Positions 2,621-45,932 are shown, numbered from the stretch's first letter. The stretch is DNA of 47,452 nt from an uncultured Clostridia bacterium (GCA_904501795.1 CAJGCK010000001.1:1-47452), one strand, 5' to 3'. Program-made: numbers and translations. Notes: generated by a model from the letters alone, not told the origin.

Positions 2621-3646
2621 ATGCAAGAACAATTTAACAACGTAAAACAAAGCGCAATTATCGACTTAGAAAACGTTTCGTCTATGCGTGAAATTAACGA
2701 TTTAAAGGTGAAATACGTTGGTAAAAGCGGTCTAGTTACTTCGCTTTTACGCACTATGAAAGATATTGCACCCGAAATGCGCTCTACTTTTGGTAAAATG
2801 GTTAACGACTTAAAAGAAGAAGTTTTGTCTCTTTTTGCGCAAAAAGAAACGTTACTTAAAGAAAAAGAACTAAAAGAACGTTTTGAAAGAGAGAAAATAG
2901 ACGTGACTTTACCCGGAAAAAGCCAAACAATAGGTAGTTTGCACCCATTAAATATTGTTAAAAACAAGATTTTAAACGCATTTTGCGGTATGGGTTTTGA
3001 AATATTTGAGGGGCCGGAAATAGACACGGATTATTATTGTTTCCAAGCACTAAATATTCCAAAAGATCACCCGGCAAGAGATATGCAAGACACCTTTTAT
3101 TTTACAGAAAATATTTTATTGCGTCCGCATACTTCTCCTGGACAAGTTAGGACAATGGAAAATAAAAAACCACCTATTAAAATCTTAAGCCCAGGTAAAG
3201 TTTATAGGGCGGATGACGACGCTTCTCACTCACCAATGTTTCACCAAATAGAAGGTTTGGTTGTAGATAAAGGCGTTTCACTTTGTGATTTGAAGGGTTT
3301 ACTTGATGAATTTGTTAAAATTATGTTTGACGACGATACTAAAACGCGTTTTCGCCCGTCGTTTTTCCCGTTTACCGAACCTAGTGTAGAAGTTGACGTT
3401 ACTTGTTGTAAATGCCACGGCAAAGGTTGTAGTTTATGTAAAGGGACGGGTTGGATAGAAATTCTTGGCGCAGGTATAGTTAATAAGAACGTTTTAGAGA
3501 TGAGCGGAATTGATTCTAACGAATATTCGGGACTAGCCTTTGGTTTAGGTGTTGAAAGAATTACCATGATTAAATATGGAATTTCGGATATTAGAACGTT
3601 ATTTGAAAACAACGTCAAATTCTTAAAACAGTTTAATAGGAGATAA
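2621..3646 (+). CDS. pheS: Phenylalanine--tRNA ligase alpha subunit
   Basis: Class II aaRS motifs and the CCKCHGKGCSLCKGTGW zinc knuckle typical of Firmicute PheS. I start it at ATG 2621 (GGAGG 2611-2615), not at the ORF-track TTG 2609, which lies in the terminator T-run. Confidence 0.95.
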   Translation: MQEQFNNVKQSAIIDLENVSSMREINDLKVKYVGKSGLVTSLLRTMKDIAPEMRSTFGKMVNDLKEEVLSLFAQKETLLKEKELKERFEREKIDVTLPGKSQTIGSLHPLNIVKNKILNAFCGMGFEIFEGPEIDTDYYCFQALNIPKDHPARDMQDTFYFTENILLRPHTSPGQVRTMENKKPPIKILSPGKVYRADDDASHSPMFHQIEGLVVDKGVSLCDLKGLLDEFVKIMFDDDTKTRFRPSFFPFTEPSVEVDVTCCKCHGKGCSLCKGTGWIEILGAGIVNKNVLEMSGIDSNEYSGLAFGLGVERITMIKYGISDIRTLFENNVKFLKQFNRR

Positions 3647-3649
3647 AAA

Positions 3650-6052
3650 ATGAAAGCACCACTTTCTTGGTTAAAAGATTTTTGTGATATAGATTGCTCG
3701 GCAAGTGAATTAGAAGCAAAATTATTCTCTTGTGGTTTTGAAGTAGAAGAAACCGTTTATTTTGCAAAGAATATTGAAAAAATAGTTACTTGTAAAATAT
3801 TAAGCATTGATAAGCACCCTAACGCTGATAAGTTATCCGTTACAATGGTTGACGCGGGTCAATATGGCAAAAGGCAAATTATTACCGCTGCAAAAAATAT
3901 TTTTCTTGGCGCGGTTGTTCCTGTTGCGTTAGACGGTGCAACTCTTTTTAACGGCGATAAGATTTATAATGGTGAACTTCGTGGTCTTCCTTCTTTCGGA
4001 ATGTTTTGTAGTGGGGAAGAATTAGGTATTAATGACGATTGGTACGAAGGCGCATCTGTTAACGGAATTTTAATTTTAGACCAAAACTTTCCACTTGGCG
4101 TTGAAGTTAAAGAATTGCTTGAATTAGAAGACGTTATATTTGACATAAACGTAACCGCAAATCGCCCTGATTGTCAGTCGATTTTAGGTTTGGCAAGAGA
4201 AGTGTCGGCAATACTTGGTAAACCGTTTAAGGCACCCGATTTATCATTTGATTTTTCTAAAAATGTATCTACAAAAGGCACCATCAAAGTAAATAATCAT
4301 GCAACCGATTTATGTTACAGATACATGTCAAAGCTTGTAAAAGACGTTAAAATTGAAAAGTCACCAACTTGGCTTAGAAGAAGATTGTTTTCAATGGGCG
4401 TTCGTTCAATAAATAATATAGTCGACATAACTAACTACGTATTACTTGAAATAGGTCAACCTATGCATGCTTTCGATCTAAACTTCTTAAAAGGTAACGA
4501 AATTAACGTAAGACGTGCTAATGAAAATGAAAAAATAGTTACTCTTGACGAAAAAGAGTTTACTTTAACAAACAAAAACTTGGTAATAGCCGATGCTGAA
4601 AGCCCCGTTGCTTTAGCCGGAGTTATGGGTGGACTTAATAGCGGAATAAATCAAGATACAAAAGATATTGTTTTCGAATCGGCAACGTTTGCTAGAGACA
4701 ATATTAGAAAAACGTCTCGTTCGCTTGGTCAACGTTCTGATTCTTCATCAAGGTATGAAAAGGGTATTGATCCGTATACTGCAAAAATCGGTTTGTATAG
4801 AGCGCTACATTTAATTTCTAAATTAAACGCCGGTAAAATTGCTTTTGATGAATACGATTTACTAGAAAAACCTATTGAAAACAAGATTATTAATACCAAA
4901 CTTTCTAAAGTAAATGAAGTTTTAGGGATTGATATACCGAAAGAAACGGTTGAAAATATATTAAATAGATTGTTTTTTAACGTAAAAATTAACGGGGATA
5001 ATATGGAAATTATTGTTCCGCCGTATAGAGAAGACGTTGAAAGTTACCCGGATATTGCTGAAGAAATAATAAGAGAATATGGATATGATCATATTACCCC
5101 AACTTTACTTAAAACTTCTAAGATAACCAACGGTGGCAAAAACAATGAACAGCAATTTAATGATAATCTTAAAGATTTATTAGTTGGCTTTGGTTTTAAT
5201 GAAATTATCACTTATTCTTTTGTTTCCGAAAAAGAATACCAATTATTTGGTATAGAAAAAAATGCTCCCGAGCATAAATTTATAAAAATACTTAATCCTT
5301 TAGGCGAAGACCTTTCAGTTATGAGAACAACGCTTATTCCATCGATTACAAGAATAGTAGGCGCTAACCTTAATAGAAAAAATAATGAGGGCAGGCTTTT
5401 TGAAATCGCAAAGGTCTATTATACTGAACAAGACCAACTAACAAAACTACCTGTTGAAAAAACAAATCTATCAATAGCATTATTTGGCGAAAATGAAGAT
5501 TTTTTCACTACAAAAGGTGTTGTTGAAGGTGTTTTATCAACCTTTGTTTTTGGGGCAAATATCGAGTATATTCCTTGCGATTTGAACTTCATGCATCCAA
5601 CCCGTTCGGCTTTTGTTAAAGTAGACGGCGAAATTTTAGGATATATAGGGCAATTATCACCGATTGTTTTAGAAAAACTTGGTATAGATAAGCCCATTTA
5701 CATTGGAGAGATTTACCTTGACATATTAAAAAATAAATTACGTGATAAAATAGTATACGCGCCTGTCTCTAAATTCCCAATCGTTGAGCGCGACCTTGCT
5801 ATTTTAGTTGATAAAGATTTACCTTGCGCTAAAATTGAAAACTGCATCAAACGCAACGCAGGGGGGAATTTAACAGAACTTAAATTGTTCGACGTTTATC
5901 AAGGCGAACAAGTTGATAAAAACAAAAAAAGTATGGCGTTTAATTTGATTTTCGTTTCAAACGAGCGTACTTTAAGCGTAGAAGAAATTGACCAAGCTGT
6001 AAACAACGTTCTTACGGCGCTTGAAAACGACTTAAACGCAAAACTGAGATAA
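3650..6052 (+). CDS. pheT: Phenylalanine--tRNA ligase beta subunit
   Basis: 800 aa with the N-terminal MKAPLSWLKDF and tRNA-binding domain typical of PheT. AGGAG RBS. It directly follows pheS. Confidence 0.95.
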   Translation: MKAPLSWLKDFCDIDCSASELEAKLFSCGFEVEETVYFAKNIEKIVTCKILSIDKHPNADKLSVTMVDAGQYGKRQIITAAKNIFLGAVVPVALDGATLFNGDKIYNGELRGLPSFGMFCSGEELGINDDWYEGASVNGILILDQNFPLGVEVKELLELEDVIFDINVTANRPDCQSILGLAREVSAILGKPFKAPDLSFDFSKNVSTKGTIKVNNHATDLCYRYMSKLVKDVKIEKSPTWLRRRLFSMGVRSINNIVDITNYVLLEIGQPMHAFDLNFLKGNEINVRRANENEKIVTLDEKEFTLTNKNLVIADAESPVALAGVMGGLNSGINQDTKDIVFESATFARDNIRKTSRSLGQRSDSSSRYEKGIDPYTAKIGLYRALHLISKLNAGKIAFDEYDLLEKPIENKIINTKLSKVNEVLGIDIPKETVENILNRLFFNVKINGDNMEIIVPPYREDVESYPDIAEEIIREYGYDHITPTLLKTSKITNGGKNNEQQFNDNLKDLLVGFGFNEIITYSFVSEKEYQLFGIEKNAPEHKFIKILNPLGEDLSVMRTTLIPSITRIVGANLNRKNNEGRLFEIAKVYYTEQDQLTKLPVEKTNLSIALFGENEDFFTTKGVVEGVLSTFVFGANIEYIPCDLNFMHPTRSAFVKVDGEILGYIGQLSPIVLEKLGIDKPIYIGEIYLDILKNKLRDKIVYAPVSKFPIVERDLAILVDKDLPCAKIENCIKRNAGGNLTELKLFDVYQGEQVDKNKKSMAFNLIFVSNERTLSVEEIDQAVNNVLTALENDLNAKLR

Positions 6053-20338: not shown

Positions 20339-21533
20339 TCTAATTAACAAATGCCAAGAAAAATTACGCGATAAATTTAATGAAATAGAAAAAATAGCAC
20401 TTTTTAACCAAGAAAAAGTACTAAATGCATTTAAAAATAATAAAATTGCTTTAAGACACTTTGTATCAACAAACGGTTATGGTTACGGTGACGAAGGTCG
20501 TGACACGCTAAATCAATTATTTGCCGAAGTTTTTAAATCTGAATCTGCAATTTGCTCGCCATACATAGTGTCGGGCACTCACGCGTTGGCACTTTGTCTT
20601 TTTGGTGTGTTAAAAAACGGTGATACCATGTTATCAATCGTTGGAAATCCTTATGATACGTTAAACGACGTTATTAACGGCGAAGATAACGGTTCTCTTG
20701 CTGATATAGGTGTTAATTTTGATAAAATTAAACTAATAAACGGGCAGTTTAACAAACAATCAATTGCAGATTATTTGAAGAATAAAACGCCTAAAATGGT
20801 ATATATACAACGTTCTAGGGGCTACGAATGGCGAAACGCATTATCTATCGCTCAAATAAAAGACGTTGTAGAGTTTTTAAGGGAGCTTAACTTTAAGGGT
20901 TGTATTATGGTTGACAACTGTTACGGTGAGTTTATAGACTATAAAGAACCGATTGAAGTAGGCGCTAATCTTATTGCGGGATCATTAATAAAAAACCCCG
21001 GTGGAGGCATAGCCCCAACAGGTGGTTACGTGGCGGGCGATAAAGTTTACGTGGATAAAGTCTTAAACCGCATGACCGCACCGTCTATCGCCGGTGAAGT
21101 AGGCTCTTATTTGGCAGGGTACGGTTTATATTATCAAGGTTTATTCCTTGCACCTCACACCGTTTCACAAGCAGTTAAAGGCTCTATGATAATAGGCGCA
21201 GTTATGAATGAATTAGGATACGAAGTGTCTCCAAGCATAAACGAACTACCTGGCGATATTATACGCGCAATTAAGTTTAACGATAAAGATAAGTTAATAC
21301 AATTTATACAAAATATTCAAGCAAATTCACCGGTCGACAGTCACGTTTTGGCGCTTCCTTGGGCAATGCCTGGCTATCAAGACGAAGTAATTATGGCTGC
21401 GGGTTGTTTTGTTCAAGGCTCGTCAATTGAATTATCTGCAGATGCACCAATAAAACCGCCTTATATCGGTTATTTACAAGGCGGTTTAACGTACGAACAC
21501 TGTATTATAGCATTAAAAAATATGAATTTGTAA
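20325..21533 (+). CDS. Methionine gamma-lyase family / aluminium-resistance-type PLP protein (YnbB-like)
   Basis: 402 aa. Family recognition is by overall similarity, from memory, to the YnbB / Met_gamma_lyase family that commonly follows miaA in Firmicutes. Confidence 0.7.
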   Translation: MIDSNLINKCQEKLRDKFNEIEKIALFNQEKVLNAFKNNKIALRHFVSTNGYGYGDEGRDTLNQLFAEVFKSESAICSPYIVSGTHALALCLFGVLKNGDTMLSIVGNPYDTLNDVINGEDNGSLADIGVNFDKIKLINGQFNKQSIADYLKNKTPKMVYIQRSRGYEWRNALSIAQIKDVVEFLRELNFKGCIMVDNCYGEFIDYKEPIEVGANLIAGSLIKNPGGGIAPTGGYVAGDKVYVDKVLNRMTAPSIAGEVGSYLAGYGLYYQGLFLAPHTVSQAVKGSMIIGAVMNELGYEVSPSINELPGDIIRAIKFNDKDKLIQFIQNIQANSPVDSHVLALPWAMPGYQDEVIMAAGCFVQGSSIELSADAPIKPPYIGYLQGGLTYEHCIIALKNMNL

Positions 21534-22127
21534 TTAAAACTTTCTAATCAATCCTTTCACAACGCCTATGATTTCAACGTTATCGAAAACCATATCGCTC
21601 ATTTGACTGTTTTCAGGGCGTAAAATTACTTTTCCACCTTTTAAAACAAGTCTTTTAACAGTTGCTGCATCATCAATCATTGCGACTACGATTTGACCAT
21701 TTTCGGCAACGTTTTGCTTGTTAACGATAATAACGTCTCCTTCAAATATTCCGGCGTTTATCATACTATCGCCAACAACTTTTAAGGCAAATTCCTCTCC
21801 ATTTAATAAAAAATCGTTTGACAAGGGGAGATAGCCTTCGATATTTTCTTCAGCAAAAATAGGTGCGCCGGCGCGGATAGTACCAACAATCGGCACGTTC
21901 TTGGCGTTCTTATTGTTATTAGCTACCGATATGGCCCTTTTTTTAAGAGGAGACTTCTCTAATAAACCACGTTGCTTTAATTTTTCAACGTAAGAGTAGG
22001 CGGTTGCGGTTGACTTAATGTTTAGTTTTTCACAAATTTCTCTGATAGACGGGGGATAACCGTTGTTATCAACGTAATCTAAAGTGAAATTGTATACGCT
22101 TAAAATTTTATCTTCTATATTTTTCAT
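21534..22127 (-). CDS. lexA: LexA repressor
   Basis: 197 aa with an N-terminal wHTH, the Ala-Gly cleavage region RAGAPIFAEE, the S24 peptidase motif VVGDSM and a downstream Lys. Its own promoter carries a LexA box. Confidence 0.92.
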   Translation of the reverse strand: MKNIEDKILSVYNFTLDYVDNNGYPPSIREICEKLNIKSTATAYSYVEKLKQRGLLEKSPLKKRAISVANNNKNAKNVPIVGTIRAGAPIFAEENIEGYLPLSNDFLLNGEEFALKVVGDSMINAGIFEGDVIIVNKQNVAENGQIVVAMIDDAATVKRLVLKGGKVILRPENSQMSDMVFDNVEIIGVVKGLIRKF

Positions 22128-22133
22128 ATCTTA

Positions 22134-22162
22134 ATTATATCAAAATTTTATTTAGATGTCAA
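22134..22162 (-). promoter_or_regulatory. Consensus sigma-A promoter of lexA, positioned for a leaderless transcript
   Basis: On the minus strand: TTGACA (22162-22157), a 17-nt spacer, TATAAT (22139-22134), 6 nt (TAAGAT), then ATG at 22127. There is no SD. Confidence 0.65.
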
Positions 22163-22173
22163 ACAAACGTTCG
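22160..22173. promoter_or_regulatory. LexA (Cheo/SOS) box
   Basis: CAAAC-AAAC-GTTCG has one mismatch to the Gram-positive consensus CGAAC-N4-GTTCG. It overlaps the lexA -35 by 3 nt. Confidence 0.6.
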
Positions 22174-22197
22174 TAATTTATTAATCAAGGAGCAAAA

Positions 22198-22365
22198 ATG
22201 AAAGAAATTAAATGTGTTAAATACGATAGAATATGTATCGATTGTGGGGAATGCGACGAGTTTTGCGACCTTAACCCCGAAAAAAAGTGCGATAGTTGTG
22301 GAAAATGTATTAGCACCGATAAAAACTATAAAATTATTAAAATTACTAAAATTATAGAAAAATAG
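22198..22365 (+). CDS. Unannotated small Cys-rich protein (55 aa, 8 Cys), divergent from lexA
   Basis: ATG 22198 preceded by AAGGAG 22187-22192 with a 5-nt spacer; TAG 22363-22365. Translation: MKEIKCVKYDRICIDCGECDEFCDLNPEKKCDSCGKCISTDKNYKIIKITKIIEK. It is absent from the ORF track only because it is under 60 aa. Confidence 0.5.
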   Translation: MKEIKCVKYDRICIDCGECDEFCDLNPEKKCDSCGKCISTDKNYKIIKITKIIEK

Positions 22366-22366
22366 T

Positions 22367-23434
22367 TTATTTCTCGGGATTTTTTCCTGATATATCAACG
22401 GATAATCCTGCTCTTTTTCTTGAATCTTCACTAATTGCCGCATAATGACGGCGCGTTGTATTAATGTCTCTATGACCAAGGCAATCGGCAACAATATAAA
22501 TATCACCAGTTTGTCTATAAAGGTTAGTACCAAACGTGCTTCGAAGCTTATGTGGCGATATTTTTTTTAGGGGAGACACGATTCTAGCGTACTTTTTAAC
22601 AAGTTCTTGAACTGTTCTTGTAGCAATTCGCTTTTTTTGTAGAGATAAAAACAGTGCTTTTTCATCCTTGCCAACCTTTTTATCGCCATTTCTTTGTTCA
22701 ACATAATCTTTTAATGCCTCATTAACTTGATTATTAAAATATAAAACAGCACGATTTCCGCCTTTTCGCGTAACAACAAAACTATTCGTAGGTAAATTAA
22801 TATCATCTACGTTTAAGCCAACCAACTCGCTAATACGAATTCCCGTGCCTAAAAATAAGGTAATAATGGCGATATCCCTAATTTTAGACGATTTATGAAA
22901 GTTCATTTGTTGTTTTGTTAGGCCGGAACCCGACTCAACAACGTACAAAAAATCACTCACTTCGTCAACTTTATCGTTCCTATCAAGCCTAATAATCTCT
23001 TTTTCATGAATTTTTGGCGTTGTAACTTTAGTCGGAATATTCGCAGATAAAACGTTTTTATTGAAAAAGTACTTGAAAAATGCGCGTAGGGTAGATAATT
23101 TACGTGCTTTTCCAGTCTCAGTACATCTTTCTTCCTTGCCATTTATGGTGTAATGACTTAAATAACTTAAAAAATATTCTATGTCTGTTGACTGCAGTTT
23201 CTCAAGATCGTCTAAGGCAATATAGGGCACAGACTTATCTCTAAAAACCTTTTTTGACAAAAAATCAAAGAAAATTCTTAAATCATATCCATAATTAAGT
23301 CTTGTTAAAGGGGACGTTCTTAATTCAACACCTATAAAAAAGTCCCTTACGTAATAAGGAAGCGTTTCTATAATATTATTCAATCTTTCAATACACGAAA
23401 TTTCTCTTTTTTCAAAGTACGATTTTTCAGCCAT
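22367..23434 (-). CDS. Tyrosine site-specific recombinase (Xer-like)
   Basis: 355 aa with an N-terminal SAM-like core-binding domain. The full catalytic set is present: R (GTGIRISEL), K (TRKGGNR), H-x-x-R (PHKLRSTF), H (LGHRD) and Y (RRHY). GGAGG RBS at 23446-23450. Confidence 0.85.
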   Translation of the reverse strand: MAEKSYFEKREISCIERLNNIIETLPYYVRDFFIGVELRTSPLTRLNYGYDLRIFFDFLSKKVFRDKSVPYIALDDLEKLQSTDIEYFLSYLSHYTINGKEERCTETGKARKLSTLRAFFKYFFNKNVLSANIPTKVTTPKIHEKEIIRLDRNDKVDEVSDFLYVVESGSGLTKQQMNFHKSSKIRDIAIITLFLGTGIRISELVGLNVDDINLPTNSFVVTRKGGNRAVLYFNNQVNEALKDYVEQRNGDKKVGKDEKALFLSLQKKRIATRTVQELVKKYARIVSPLKKISPHKLRSTFGTNLYRQTGDIYIVADCLGHRDINTTRRHYAAISEDSRKRAGLSVDISGKNPEK

Positions 23435-23499: not shown

Positions 23500-23533
23500 A
23501 ACTATGCGCAAAACACAACTTTTACGCATAGTT
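23500..23533. repeat. Near-perfect 14-6-14 inverted repeat; candidate recombinase core site, operator or 5'-UTR hairpin
   Basis: AACTATGCGCAAAA (23500-23513), CACAAC (23514-23519), TTTTACGCATAGTT (23520-23533). The arms are complementary at 13 of 14 positions. It lies 66 nt upstream of the recombinase ATG. Confidence 0.8.
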
Positions 23534-23848: not shown

Positions 23849-25132
23849 ATGGATAATAAAGCAATTAGTAGTGATTTAATTCGTGGACATATTGATACGA
23901 TTATTTTACACGCATTATTAAACGGTAATAAATTTGCCGGTCAAATAAGCGAATATATCGAAGAAAAAAGCAATGGCGAATATAAAATCAACCAGGCTAC
24001 CCTATACAGTTCGCTTAAACGACTAGAAAACTTAAAATATATTAGTGGATATTGGCAAGACGCGCCAACTGGAAGAAGAAGATTTTTTAGATTAACCGAG
24101 CTTGGCAATCAAACCGTTTCAAATAATTTATCAAATTGGGAATACTCAAGAAAAATTATTGATAAATTAATGGATTTTGATTATACACCGTCACAAAAAA
24201 TTGTAGAAAAGGTTGTTTACGTTACTACGCCACAACAAAATGAAAAAATTAATATCGAAAATAGCAACTTCACTCTTCAATTAAATTCATTAAATTCTAC
24301 AGAAAACGATAAAACTAAAAATGAATTAAAAGAAAACCAAATAAGTCAAGAAAAAAAGCAAAACGATGTTGAAGAAGTTAATTTTAGAAATATTTTATAC
24401 GGTTTAATAAAAACTCAAAACTTAAACAACACGAAAAACGAACAAATTTTAATCAATTCAAACGATAACCCAAAAATCAATCAAATAATTGATAAAAATG
24501 TTGCCAGTAAGCACGAGAGCAACGAAATTTTTCTTGAAAAAGACAAAAAGATTGATTTTAATACCGCTGTAAACGATTCTAGATCAAATATTAACTTAAA
24601 AAATTACGATTCAACTGGAAGAATTGACTATAATCAAATGATTTCTACCGCCGAAAAAGACGGTATGAAAATTAAATTTTCTACAAAAGAAACAAAAACC
24701 ACTACAGGCACGACTTTAATTAACAAACTTTCGGTTTGTTCGGCAATGGTTGTTTTCTTATTGGTTTTATTAGAATATTTAGTTATTACGATTAATTTTG
24801 CTCAATTATTAAAGCCTTCTGCAGTGTTTATTTTGGTAAGTTTATTAATTTTTGTATCATTTCCAGTGCTTGAAGCAATAAGATTTTTTAAATCACCTAA
24901 TAAGATGTCTAAAACGATTTCCAAAGATTCGATTATTACTTCACTAATCGTTGTATTTAACTTGTTACTAATAACATTTGTTATTAATTTGTTTTTAGGC
25001 TTAGATTTTAGTAACTTATTTAACTCGATTTTGTTCTTTTATACGCCTTGTTTGTTGTTTGTAAACGTTTTTATTTTTTATTTAGTTAGATTTCTACTAT
25101 CTAAATTGCCAAATTTTAACGTAAAAAAATAG
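23849..25132 (+). CDS. PadR-family wHTH regulator fused to a low-complexity linker and a 4-TM C-terminal domain
   Basis: 427 aa. The N-terminal roughly 95 aa (IRGHIDTIILHALLNG...ATLYSSLKRLENLKYISGYW...RRFFRLTELG) is PadR-like. About 170 aa are N/K/Q/E-rich. Four hydrophobic helices occupy the last roughly 150 aa. Confidence 0.75.
   Translation: MDNKAISSDLIRGHIDTIILHALLNGNKFAGQISEYIEEKSNGEYKINQATLYSSLKRLENLKYISGYWQDAPTGRRRFFRLTELGNQTVSNNLSNWEYSRKIIDKLMDFDYTPSQKIVEKVVYVTTPQQNEKINIENSNFTLQLNSLNSTENDKTKNELKENQISQEKKQNDVEEVNFRNILYGLIKTQNLNNTKNEQILINSNDNPKINQIIDKNVASKHESNEIFLEKDKKIDFNTAVNDSRSNINLKNYDSTGRIDYNQMISTAEKDGMKIKFSTKETKTTTGTTLINKLSVCSAMVVFLLVLLEYLVITINFAQLLKPSAVFILVSLLIFVSFPVLEAIRFFKSPNKMSKTISKDSIITSLIVVFNLLLITFVINLFLGLDFSNLFNSILFFYTPCLLFVNVFIFYLVRFLLSKLPNFNVKK

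Positions 25133-45839: not shown

Positions 45840-45932
<93 letters not shown>

Follow-up and report, generated by a model that had tools for sequence, protein, structure and literature searches.

What kind of gene stands back to back with lexA in Clostridia, and does LexA control it? We address this question for a 47,452-nt stretch of DNA from an uncultured Clostridia bacterium (GCA_904501795.1 CAJGCK010000001.1:1-47452; hereafter the window, meaning the whole stretch), in which an open reading frame (ORF) of 55 codons lies divergent from lexA and had been put forward, in a first-pass annotation of this DNA, as a candidate new effector of the SOS response. The ORF belongs to a family that is widespread, tiny, strongly selected, absent from every curated library that we searched, and tied to lexA and to a Xer/dif module of the terminus. 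Our best explanation, which we hold tentatively and at somewhat short of an even chance, is that it encodes a conserved metal-binding mini-protein that LexA would hold down and that would modulate a late cell-cycle step in the response to DNA damage; the role in that explanation is a guess by association.

The 55-codon gene and its family

22187..22192, plus strand: Shine-Dalgarno sequence AAGGAG, 5 nt ahead of the ATG of the ORF
22198..22365, plus strand: coding sequence of a 55-amino-acid (aa) Cys-rich protein, stop codon counted in, resting on translation, homologues, alignments and the ratio of nonsynonymous to synonymous substitution rates (dN/dS)
Within that coding sequence: the conserved family core C23, D24, K29, C31, D32, C34, G35 and C37, with the tail NYKIIKITKII

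The ORF runs for 55 codons from an ATG at 22198 to a TAG at 22363-22365, and both the frame (22198-22365) and its ribosome-binding site, AAGGAG with a 5-nt spacer, lie exactly where the first-pass annotation had put them. Direct translation gives MKEIKCVKYDRICIDCGECDEFCDLNPEKKCDSCGKCISTDKNYKIIKITKIIEK, with the C-terminal end ...NYKIIKITKIIEK, and reproduces the eight-cysteine pattern that had been claimed, C-x6-C-x2-C-x2-C-x3-C-x7-C-x2-C-x2-C, with cysteines at C6, C13, C16, C19, C23, C31, C34 and C37. Shine-Dalgarno-like sequences stand at the equivalent position in most relatives. The description of the ORF as unannotated holds in so far as it falls below the 60-aa cut-off of the ORF track, but exactly this protein has already been called by public gene callers, which leave it unnamed or label it "hypothetical".

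The gene is far from solitary. A word-indexed search returned 90 homologues, which are 46-89 aa long and reach E-values as low as 1e-22, and an exhaustive profile search covering 1.84 billion cluster representatives returned 440 clusters at 50% identity (E<=1e-3). When one genome per GTDB species was scanned, relatives were found in 112 species, mostly gut metagenome-assembled genomes of Christensenellaceae or unclassified Clostridia, with Clostridium tetani among them. Over the 32-codon core, pairwise Nei-Gojobori comparison gives a dN/dS of ~0.17, and the two alternative frames are interrupted by stops in 76/81 and 81/81 loci. Residues that never change in the protein vary synonymously in the DNA: the invariant cysteines are encoded by TGC and TGT in a ratio of 50:29, and across relatives Leu25 is written with five codons and Pro27 with four. 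The homologue search and the dN/dS test, both of which the first-pass annotation had proposed as checks, together with the alignments and the codon variation show the frame and its cysteines to be under selection, and we consider the ORF almost certain to be a genuine protein-coding gene.

No Pfam, NCBIfam, PHROG or PADLOC family comes at or near threshold for the product, we found no description of the family in the literature, and a paper on the LexA regulon of C. acetobutylicum mentions no gene next to lexA. The ORF has no tblastn match in phage and plasmid collections, so it does not appear to be mobile-element cargo. A precursor of a ribosomally synthesized and post-translationally modified peptide was considered and rejected, there being no maturase nearby. 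Rfam has no RNA family at the ORF locus; its only matches in the window are a T-box leader (100.7 bits) and a tRNA gene, at 2365-2590 and 45840-45927.

In three family alignments the only invariant cysteines are C23, C31, C34 and C37, and D24, L25, K29, G35 and K36 are nearly invariant. The other four cysteines, C6, C13, C16 and C19, are found in most members, and one subfamily carries an acidic N-terminus in their place. The sequence contains an internal repeat of two modules, Cx6-CIDCGEC and Cx7-CDSCGKC, which share the layout Cx6-7CxxCGxC and of which the four-Cys first is dispensable. Downstream of the second module lies a strand-like segment, NYKIIKITKII in Christensenellales and [DE]Y[RK]xIKIDxI elsewhere, and the NYKIIKITKII tail is almost invariant. 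Many members add a long acidic tail, so the window protein can be taken as the minimal core of the family; it contains no hydrophobic segment, which points to a cytoplasmic location, and has no LysM match. The family is uncharacterised and found throughout Clostridia, and the window protein is its minimal, soluble form.

The LexA box and the control of the ORF

21534..22127, minus strand: lexA, 197 aa, with Pfam LexA_DNA_bind and Peptidase_S24 domains (TIGR00498, 2.2e-61, 207 bits against a cut-off of 111)
22134..22162, minus strand: lexA promoter from the promoter scan, a perfect sigma-70-type TTGACA-17-(TG)TATAAT
22160..22173, no strand assigned: LexA (Cheo-type) box CAAACAAACGTTCG, common to the divergent lexA and ORF promoter regions
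22151..22179, plus strand: candidate weak ORF promoter TTTAGA/TAATTT, whose 17-nt spacer contains the 14-nt LexA box

The ORF and lexA diverge from a spacer of 70 bp. Within it, CAAACAAACGTTCG is the sole match in the window to the Firmicutes pattern CGAACN4GTTCG at <=1 mismatch, a tolerance at which chance alone would supply ~0.86 matches in 47 kb and ~0.001 in the 70-bp spacer. With the relaxed pattern RAAC-N4-GTTY the window shows no enrichment (7 matches against 6.9 expected), and the case for a LexA box rests on its position and its conservation: gtcAAAC-N4-GTT[CT] recurs at the same position in 58/81 loci, against 0.04 expected. On the minus strand the lexA promoter consists of TTGACA at 22162-22157, 17 nt, and TG-n-TATAAT at 22139-22134. 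There is no Shine-Dalgarno sequence for lexA, and its mRNA is probably leaderless, as the -10 element ends 6 nt ahead of the lexA ATG.

On the ORF side, the box ends 14 nt ahead of the Shine-Dalgarno sequence and no consensus promoter fits between the two. In so short a spacer, a promoter for the ORF must either overlap the operator or read through it, and LexA occupancy should for that reason repress the ORF in the window. The first-pass annotation had named TTTAGA (22151-22156, 4/6 match to consensus) and TAATTT (22174-22179, 3/6) as this promoter, with the box as its spacer; both sequences are present and the arrangement is weak but plausible, though the promoter scan does not call it. Other compact loci likewise have a -10-like hexamer immediately 3' of the box. 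Judging from this geometry, repression of the ORF by LexA in the source genome, jointly with lexA itself, has a slightly better than even chance of being real.

The pairing with lexA is habitual. A neighbourhood census of 80 species loci (77 informative for lexA, 73 for the Xer-like recombinase gene, xer) finds lexA divergent from the ORF within <=200 nt in 59/77 loci and within <=900 nt in 64/77, which answers the question, raised with the candidate, of whether its relatives always keep to this position: most do, but not all. The arrangement extends to Clostridium proper and to a lineage whose outer neighbours have changed. The recurrent order is mutL-miaA-(hfq)-ynbB-lexA(-) <-> ORF(+) -> <- xer(-), and the succession from mutL to xer is found in C. 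drakei, C. fermenticellae, C. tetani and three more Clostridium-type contigs. As a triplet, lexA, the ORF and xer span orders, from Christensenellales to Clostridium. In the lineage with replaced flanks, one side holds a DEAD helicase and a DUF1292 gene in place of miaA-ynbB, the opposite side holds RNase H and P5CR, and the triplet is intact. This range, and the survival of the triplet between swapped flanks, argue for a functional tie beyond passive synteny. In L072, L076 and L077 (at ~3230-3820; loci of relatives are numbered with the prefix L) the gene in the lexA position is only 32-34% identical to the LexA of the window, and the box upstream of it is degenerate (gtcAAAAtatt); possibly a diverged S24 repressor has taken the place of lexA there. 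A few family members lie in unrelated contexts.

In Bacillus, Listeria, Staphylococcus, Mycobacterium and Corynebacterium, the genes divergent from lexA code for inhibitors of division that belong to the SOS response (PMC6851548), and in C. thermocellum a LysM-containing YneA-like gene holds the lexA-divergent slot and is bound by LexA (PMC8457756). YneA (Bacillus, Listeria), SosA (Staphylococcus), ChiZ/Rv2719c (Mycobacterium) and DivS (Corynebacterium) resemble the ORF in being products of small, fast-evolving genes that diverge from lexA across an operator-bearing spacer. However, these proteins are anchored in the membrane, two of them (YneA and ChiZ) with LysM domains, whereas the window protein is neither anchored nor LysM-bearing, has eight cysteines and shares no sequence similarity with them; nor is LexA control conserved in its family. 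The first-pass annotation was thus right that the ORF is unrelated to YneA, there being no LysM match and no similarity, and right that it stands in the position of yneA, but this position does not imply the function of yneA. In L026 and L070 a YneA-like gene encoding a transmembrane segment and a LysM domain (Pfam LysM 6.5e-6 and 1e-9; L070 1040-1550, L026 3470-3995) lies between lexA and the ORF, with the ORF directly downstream on the same strand. The YneA-like gene has a textbook SOS promoter with the LexA box within its spacer, three boxes being present in all in L070, and this arrangement would keep the ORF inside an SOS locus. No YneA-like gene was found by tblastn in the window or in Christensenellales loci (leaving aside one B. 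subtilis YneA query). If the SOS reading of the ORF is right, its product would share with SulA of E. coli the character of a cytoplasmic effector repressed by LexA, although the two products show no homology; SulA has 169 aa, is not rich in cysteine, and is encoded by a gene that does not adjoin lexA.

Several observations weigh against the reading of the ORF as a LexA-held modulator of the damage response. The box is placed for the lexA promoter, whose -35 element (TTGACA) it overlaps, and no ORF promoter in the window passes a consensus promoter scan. Around 30 relatives with a longer spacer have a strong ORF promoter, TTGAxx-17-TATAAT, clear of the box, which is centred near -63 there. In C. 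tetani and L084-L086 it ends 10-11 nt upstream of the ORF -35, and in C. drakei-type loci it lies >100 nt away. Only in some loci does it cover the ORF core promoter (L069, L089), L063 having a second box at +1. Among the 81 loci, none without an adjacent lexA carries a box, which indicates that the box follows lexA and not the ORF and that LexA control is not a family trait. About 10 species have ynbB followed directly by the ORF, with overlapping stop and start and with neither lexA nor xer, so that the ORF of this group appears to be coupled translationally to ynbB instead. Some lineages, L026 and L070 for example, have a YneA-like inhibitor alongside the ORF, which undercuts the idea that the ORF simply replaces YneA. 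Finally, the AlphaFold2 models, built from 87 and 124 sequences, reach a pLDDT of only 55.6 and 63.6, and fold, metal and partner are all inferred. The box that the first-pass annotation had described as shared is indeed present in the window and conserved in relatives, but it appears to be first of all a conserved auto-operator of lexA, lying outside the ORF promoter where relatives have a strong one.

Three side observations belong to these promoters and junctions. The ORF itself looks leaderless, with a good -35 and TATAAT-N6-ATG, in L003, L004, L006, L007, L011, L012, L014, L015 and L025, at ~3950-4000. In L066 (515-800) the spacer between lexA and the ORF extends to 286 nt and holds a good promoter, a tiny frame preceded by a Shine-Dalgarno sequence, and two hairpins; it may be a leader or attenuator. 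In L040 (3999-4003) and likewise in L037, L044, L047, L051 and L054, the ynbB junction reads TAATG, which combines the stop of the PF06838 gene (YnbB, Met-gamma-lyase-like) with the start of the ORF and suggests translational coupling of the ORF with the YnbB enzyme.

These counterpoints give room to an alternative that we regard as a serious contender, though on balance a doubtful one, in which the ORF encodes a constitutive housekeeping metalloprotein. Its adjacency to lexA would then be the inherited synteny of an old block, mutL-miaA-hfq-ynbB-lexA-ORF-xer, near the terminus, and LexA control in the window a by-product of compaction. In its favour, the ORF of relatives is served by strong sigma-A-type promoters that lie beyond the LexA box and are often leaderless, and many relatives have a dedicated bidirectional terminator; 13/77 loci lack lexA and any box, and in L040-type loci the ORF appears coupled to ynbB. 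This alternative sits less easily with a lexA/ORF/xer triplet that outlasts its outer flanks and ranges from Christensenellales to Clostridium, and with the bona fide SOS promoter upstream of the ORF in L070 and L026. Conserved divergent pairs that include a regulator are, moreover, usually pairs of a regulator and its target. Control by DNA damage is, in sum, plausible in the source genome but is not fixed across the family.

The recombinase gene and the terminus-like locus

22367..23434, minus strand: Xer-like tyrosine recombinase gene, a conserved neighbour, matched best in NCBIfam by XerS with a score under the cut-off
23500..23533, no strand assigned: dif-like palindrome AACTATGCGCAAAA/CACAAC/TTTTACGCATAGTT, 66 nt upstream of the recombinase gene

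On its other side the ORF converges with the Xer-like gene, and a single nucleotide separates the two stop codons. The region has the appearance of a replication terminus: over the window (1-47452) the cumulative G-C curve reaches its maximum at 21418, with positive skew to the left and negative skew to the right, and genes switch strand at lexA and the ORF, those on the left being nearly all on the plus strand and those on the right nearly all on the minus strand. In C. fermenticellae the homologous locus sits 52.9% of the way along the chromosome, and in a complete Christensenellaceae chromosome the figure is ~57%. We take the locus to be a probable terminus-like switch of replication, near 21400-22200.

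The dif-like element is made up of two 14-bp arms around a 6-bp centre. It is present in 46 related loci, every one of which has a detectable xer gene, and its arms show matched changes while conserving one asymmetry between them. The pattern was not found in Clostridium loci, and the window lacks the canonical Firmicutes dif (B. subtilis type). In the XerS/difSL and XerH/difH systems (PMC2731167, PMC2965235), a single recombinase is encoded beside its site, a layout that the neighbouring xer gene and palindrome of the window resemble, and which suggests a single-recombinase system of the XerS/XerH style in Christensenellales. Beyond the recombinase gene, most loci share a further conserved neighbour; in the window (23849-25132) it encodes 427 aa, with a PadR domain at the N-terminus, a hydrophobic region at the C-terminus and a long low-complexity stretch between them.

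Between the ORF and xer, many relatives leave a gap of 23-47 nt that accommodates a bidirectional terminator hairpin. No terminator or hairpin was found between the two genes in the window, L019, L063, L075 and L078, where the gap is 1 nt or the stops overlap. That the 3' end of the ORF is antisense to read-through from the recombinase gene, as the first-pass annotation had stated, is real in the window but local, being confined to a few compact loci; the mutual antisense overlap is best regarded as a local, derived feature.

The frequent presence of this neighbour raises the possibility that the product assists or regulates the adjacent recombinase and its dif-like site, for example by coupling dimer resolution to DNA-damage status. 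A xer gene is nearby in 53/73 informative loci and convergent within 150 nt in 31; the ORF and xer remain paired without lexA in L087, L005 and L055; and the conserved palindrome stands upstream of xer, at a locus with a terminus-like switch. Even so, we think this proposal unlikely. The other 20/73 loci have no xer within 1.5-4 kb, and the ORF occurs without it in L026, L070, L066 and the L040 group. The two genes are convergent, not co-transcribed, and we know of no Xer system that requires such a small factor.

Cysteine motifs, tails and a possible role

Turning to the protein itself, the cysteines are arranged as paired CxxC knuckles (C13xxC16, C16xxC19, C31xxC34 and C34xxC37), in which C31, C34 and C37 are invariant, and very probably form a Cys-ligated metal site that binds either Zn or an Fe-S cluster. 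The low-confidence AlphaFold2 models gave no Foldseek match in the PDB. The only sequence similarity to a PDB entry is marginal and local, a profile match at E=0.011 with the zinc-ribbon part of the eukaryotic and archaeal ribosomal protein eS26, with the pattern CxxCxxC[VI]xxDKx[IY]Kx[FI]xIxxI[VI]. This likeness suggests a knuckle followed by a beta-hairpin, but it spans ~30 residues and differs in organism and functional context, and convergence seems more likely than homology. Some homologues are labelled "Zn-finger domain-containing" in UniRef, which is not a curated assignment.

A miniature ferredoxin, carrying electrons through one or two [4Fe-4S] clusters, is a further reading with some points in its favour. 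The clostridial 2[4Fe-4S] ferredoxins (Fer4) also have ~55 aa, eight cysteines and CxxCxxC(G) motifs; the CxxCxxC triplets of the ORF product include CxxCGxC, its four invariant cysteines would make up a one-cluster set (three of one motif and the last of the other), and its hosts are strictly anaerobic. We tested Pfam Fer4 (PF00037), Fer4_7 (PF12838) and relatives, and the window protein scores 13.4 bits for Fer4 (a weak E=0.07) against a gathering threshold of 21.1; among family members 2/124 reach E<=0.01, and all remain below the gathering thresholds. Its layout also departs from that of a ferredoxin, which has two CxxCxxCxxxCP motifs ~18-20 residues apart. The first motif has Asp instead of Pro after its last cysteine, so that Cys-Pro is lacking; the C19-C23 spacing is x3 in the window protein and x2 in most relatives; and the second motif, which has no fourth cysteine, follows after a gap of 7 residues. 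One subfamily, moreover, dispenses with the first module and is down to four cysteines, neither ferredoxin-like model nor Foldseek match was obtained, and the genomic context is DNA-related, not redox. The doubt that the first-pass annotation had voiced about a canonical ferredoxin is therefore borne out by the sub-threshold scores, and we judge a canonical ferredoxin to be very improbable, and the miniature electron carrier equally so. A spurious ORF or an RNA-level element, for example one acting antisense into the recombinase gene, might be suspected from the short length and because, in the window, no terminator precedes the convergent recombinase gene, but is effectively refuted by the dN/dS, the synonymous variation, the closed alternative frames, the 440 clusters and the absence of an Rfam family at the locus.

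The long-form members add a further element. Family members in Clostridium proper have 117-180 aa and close with an acidic linker (median 38% Asp+Glu), the motif EEFPG[LF]IR, which hardly varies, and basic residues, and an FtsZ-like terminal motif is present in 43/107 long-form homologues. The C-terminal peptide of FtsZ is, in E. coli, DIPAFLR and, in B. subtilis, DIPTFLR+NRNKRG (PMC4117426, PMC6657595), and the E-F-P-G-[LF]-I-R (+K/R) of the long forms matches it in residue class at 7/7 positions. Among 644 background ORFs only family members contain the E-F-P-G-[LF]-I-R pattern, which was recognised post hoc, and a search of PDB sequences with a profile of the long-form tails failed to bring up FtsZ. 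The 55-aa protein of the window differs in having neither linker nor tail. Mimicry of the FtsZ tail by the long forms is accordingly offered as a possible lead and not as a finding. Tails in other clades end in DDLFPFMRGNR, AGAFM[KNR] or DDELVWP.

How might a LexA-held product of this kind act? We hypothesize that its cysteines would hold one or two metal centres, Zn or Fe-S, stabilising a knuckle, and that the conserved tail would form a beta-strand contacting a partner. LexA would hold the ORF down and release it together with lexA upon DNA damage. The product could then serve as a cytoplasmic modulator of a late cell-cycle step, either division or terminus segregation with dimer resolution, and would act beside, and not instead of, inhibitors of the YneA type. 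Taken by itself, a role in damage-linked control of division or segregation is unlikely, though well worth entertaining. A bolder version is less probable still: the family may constitute a new LexA-linked, cytoplasmic, metal-dependent class of checkpoint protein, in which the core of Cys knuckle and beta-strand would dock on a component of the divisome or of terminus segregation, the FtsZ-like tails of the long forms would compete with FtsZ for its membrane tethers FtsA or SepF, and the window protein would be the stripped core under the lexA operator.

Either outcome would matter for the biology of these organisms. If the ORF is constitutive, the family is still an unnamed conserved metalloprotein that deserves a family definition, and the locus becomes a warning against inferring function from a lexA-divergent position alone. 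Control of division linked to the SOS response is known in Gram-positive bacteria only through membrane-anchored proteins (YneA, SosA and ChiZ), and we found no paper on a cytoplasmic equivalent in Clostridia, the class that includes C. tetani and the dominant gut anaerobes. If instead the ORF product responds to damage as a regulator, it would add to the known checkpoint components one with a new mechanism, and the idea is open to direct test in carriers that can be cultured, C. tetani, C. tetanomorphum, C. drakei and C. carboxidivorans among them.

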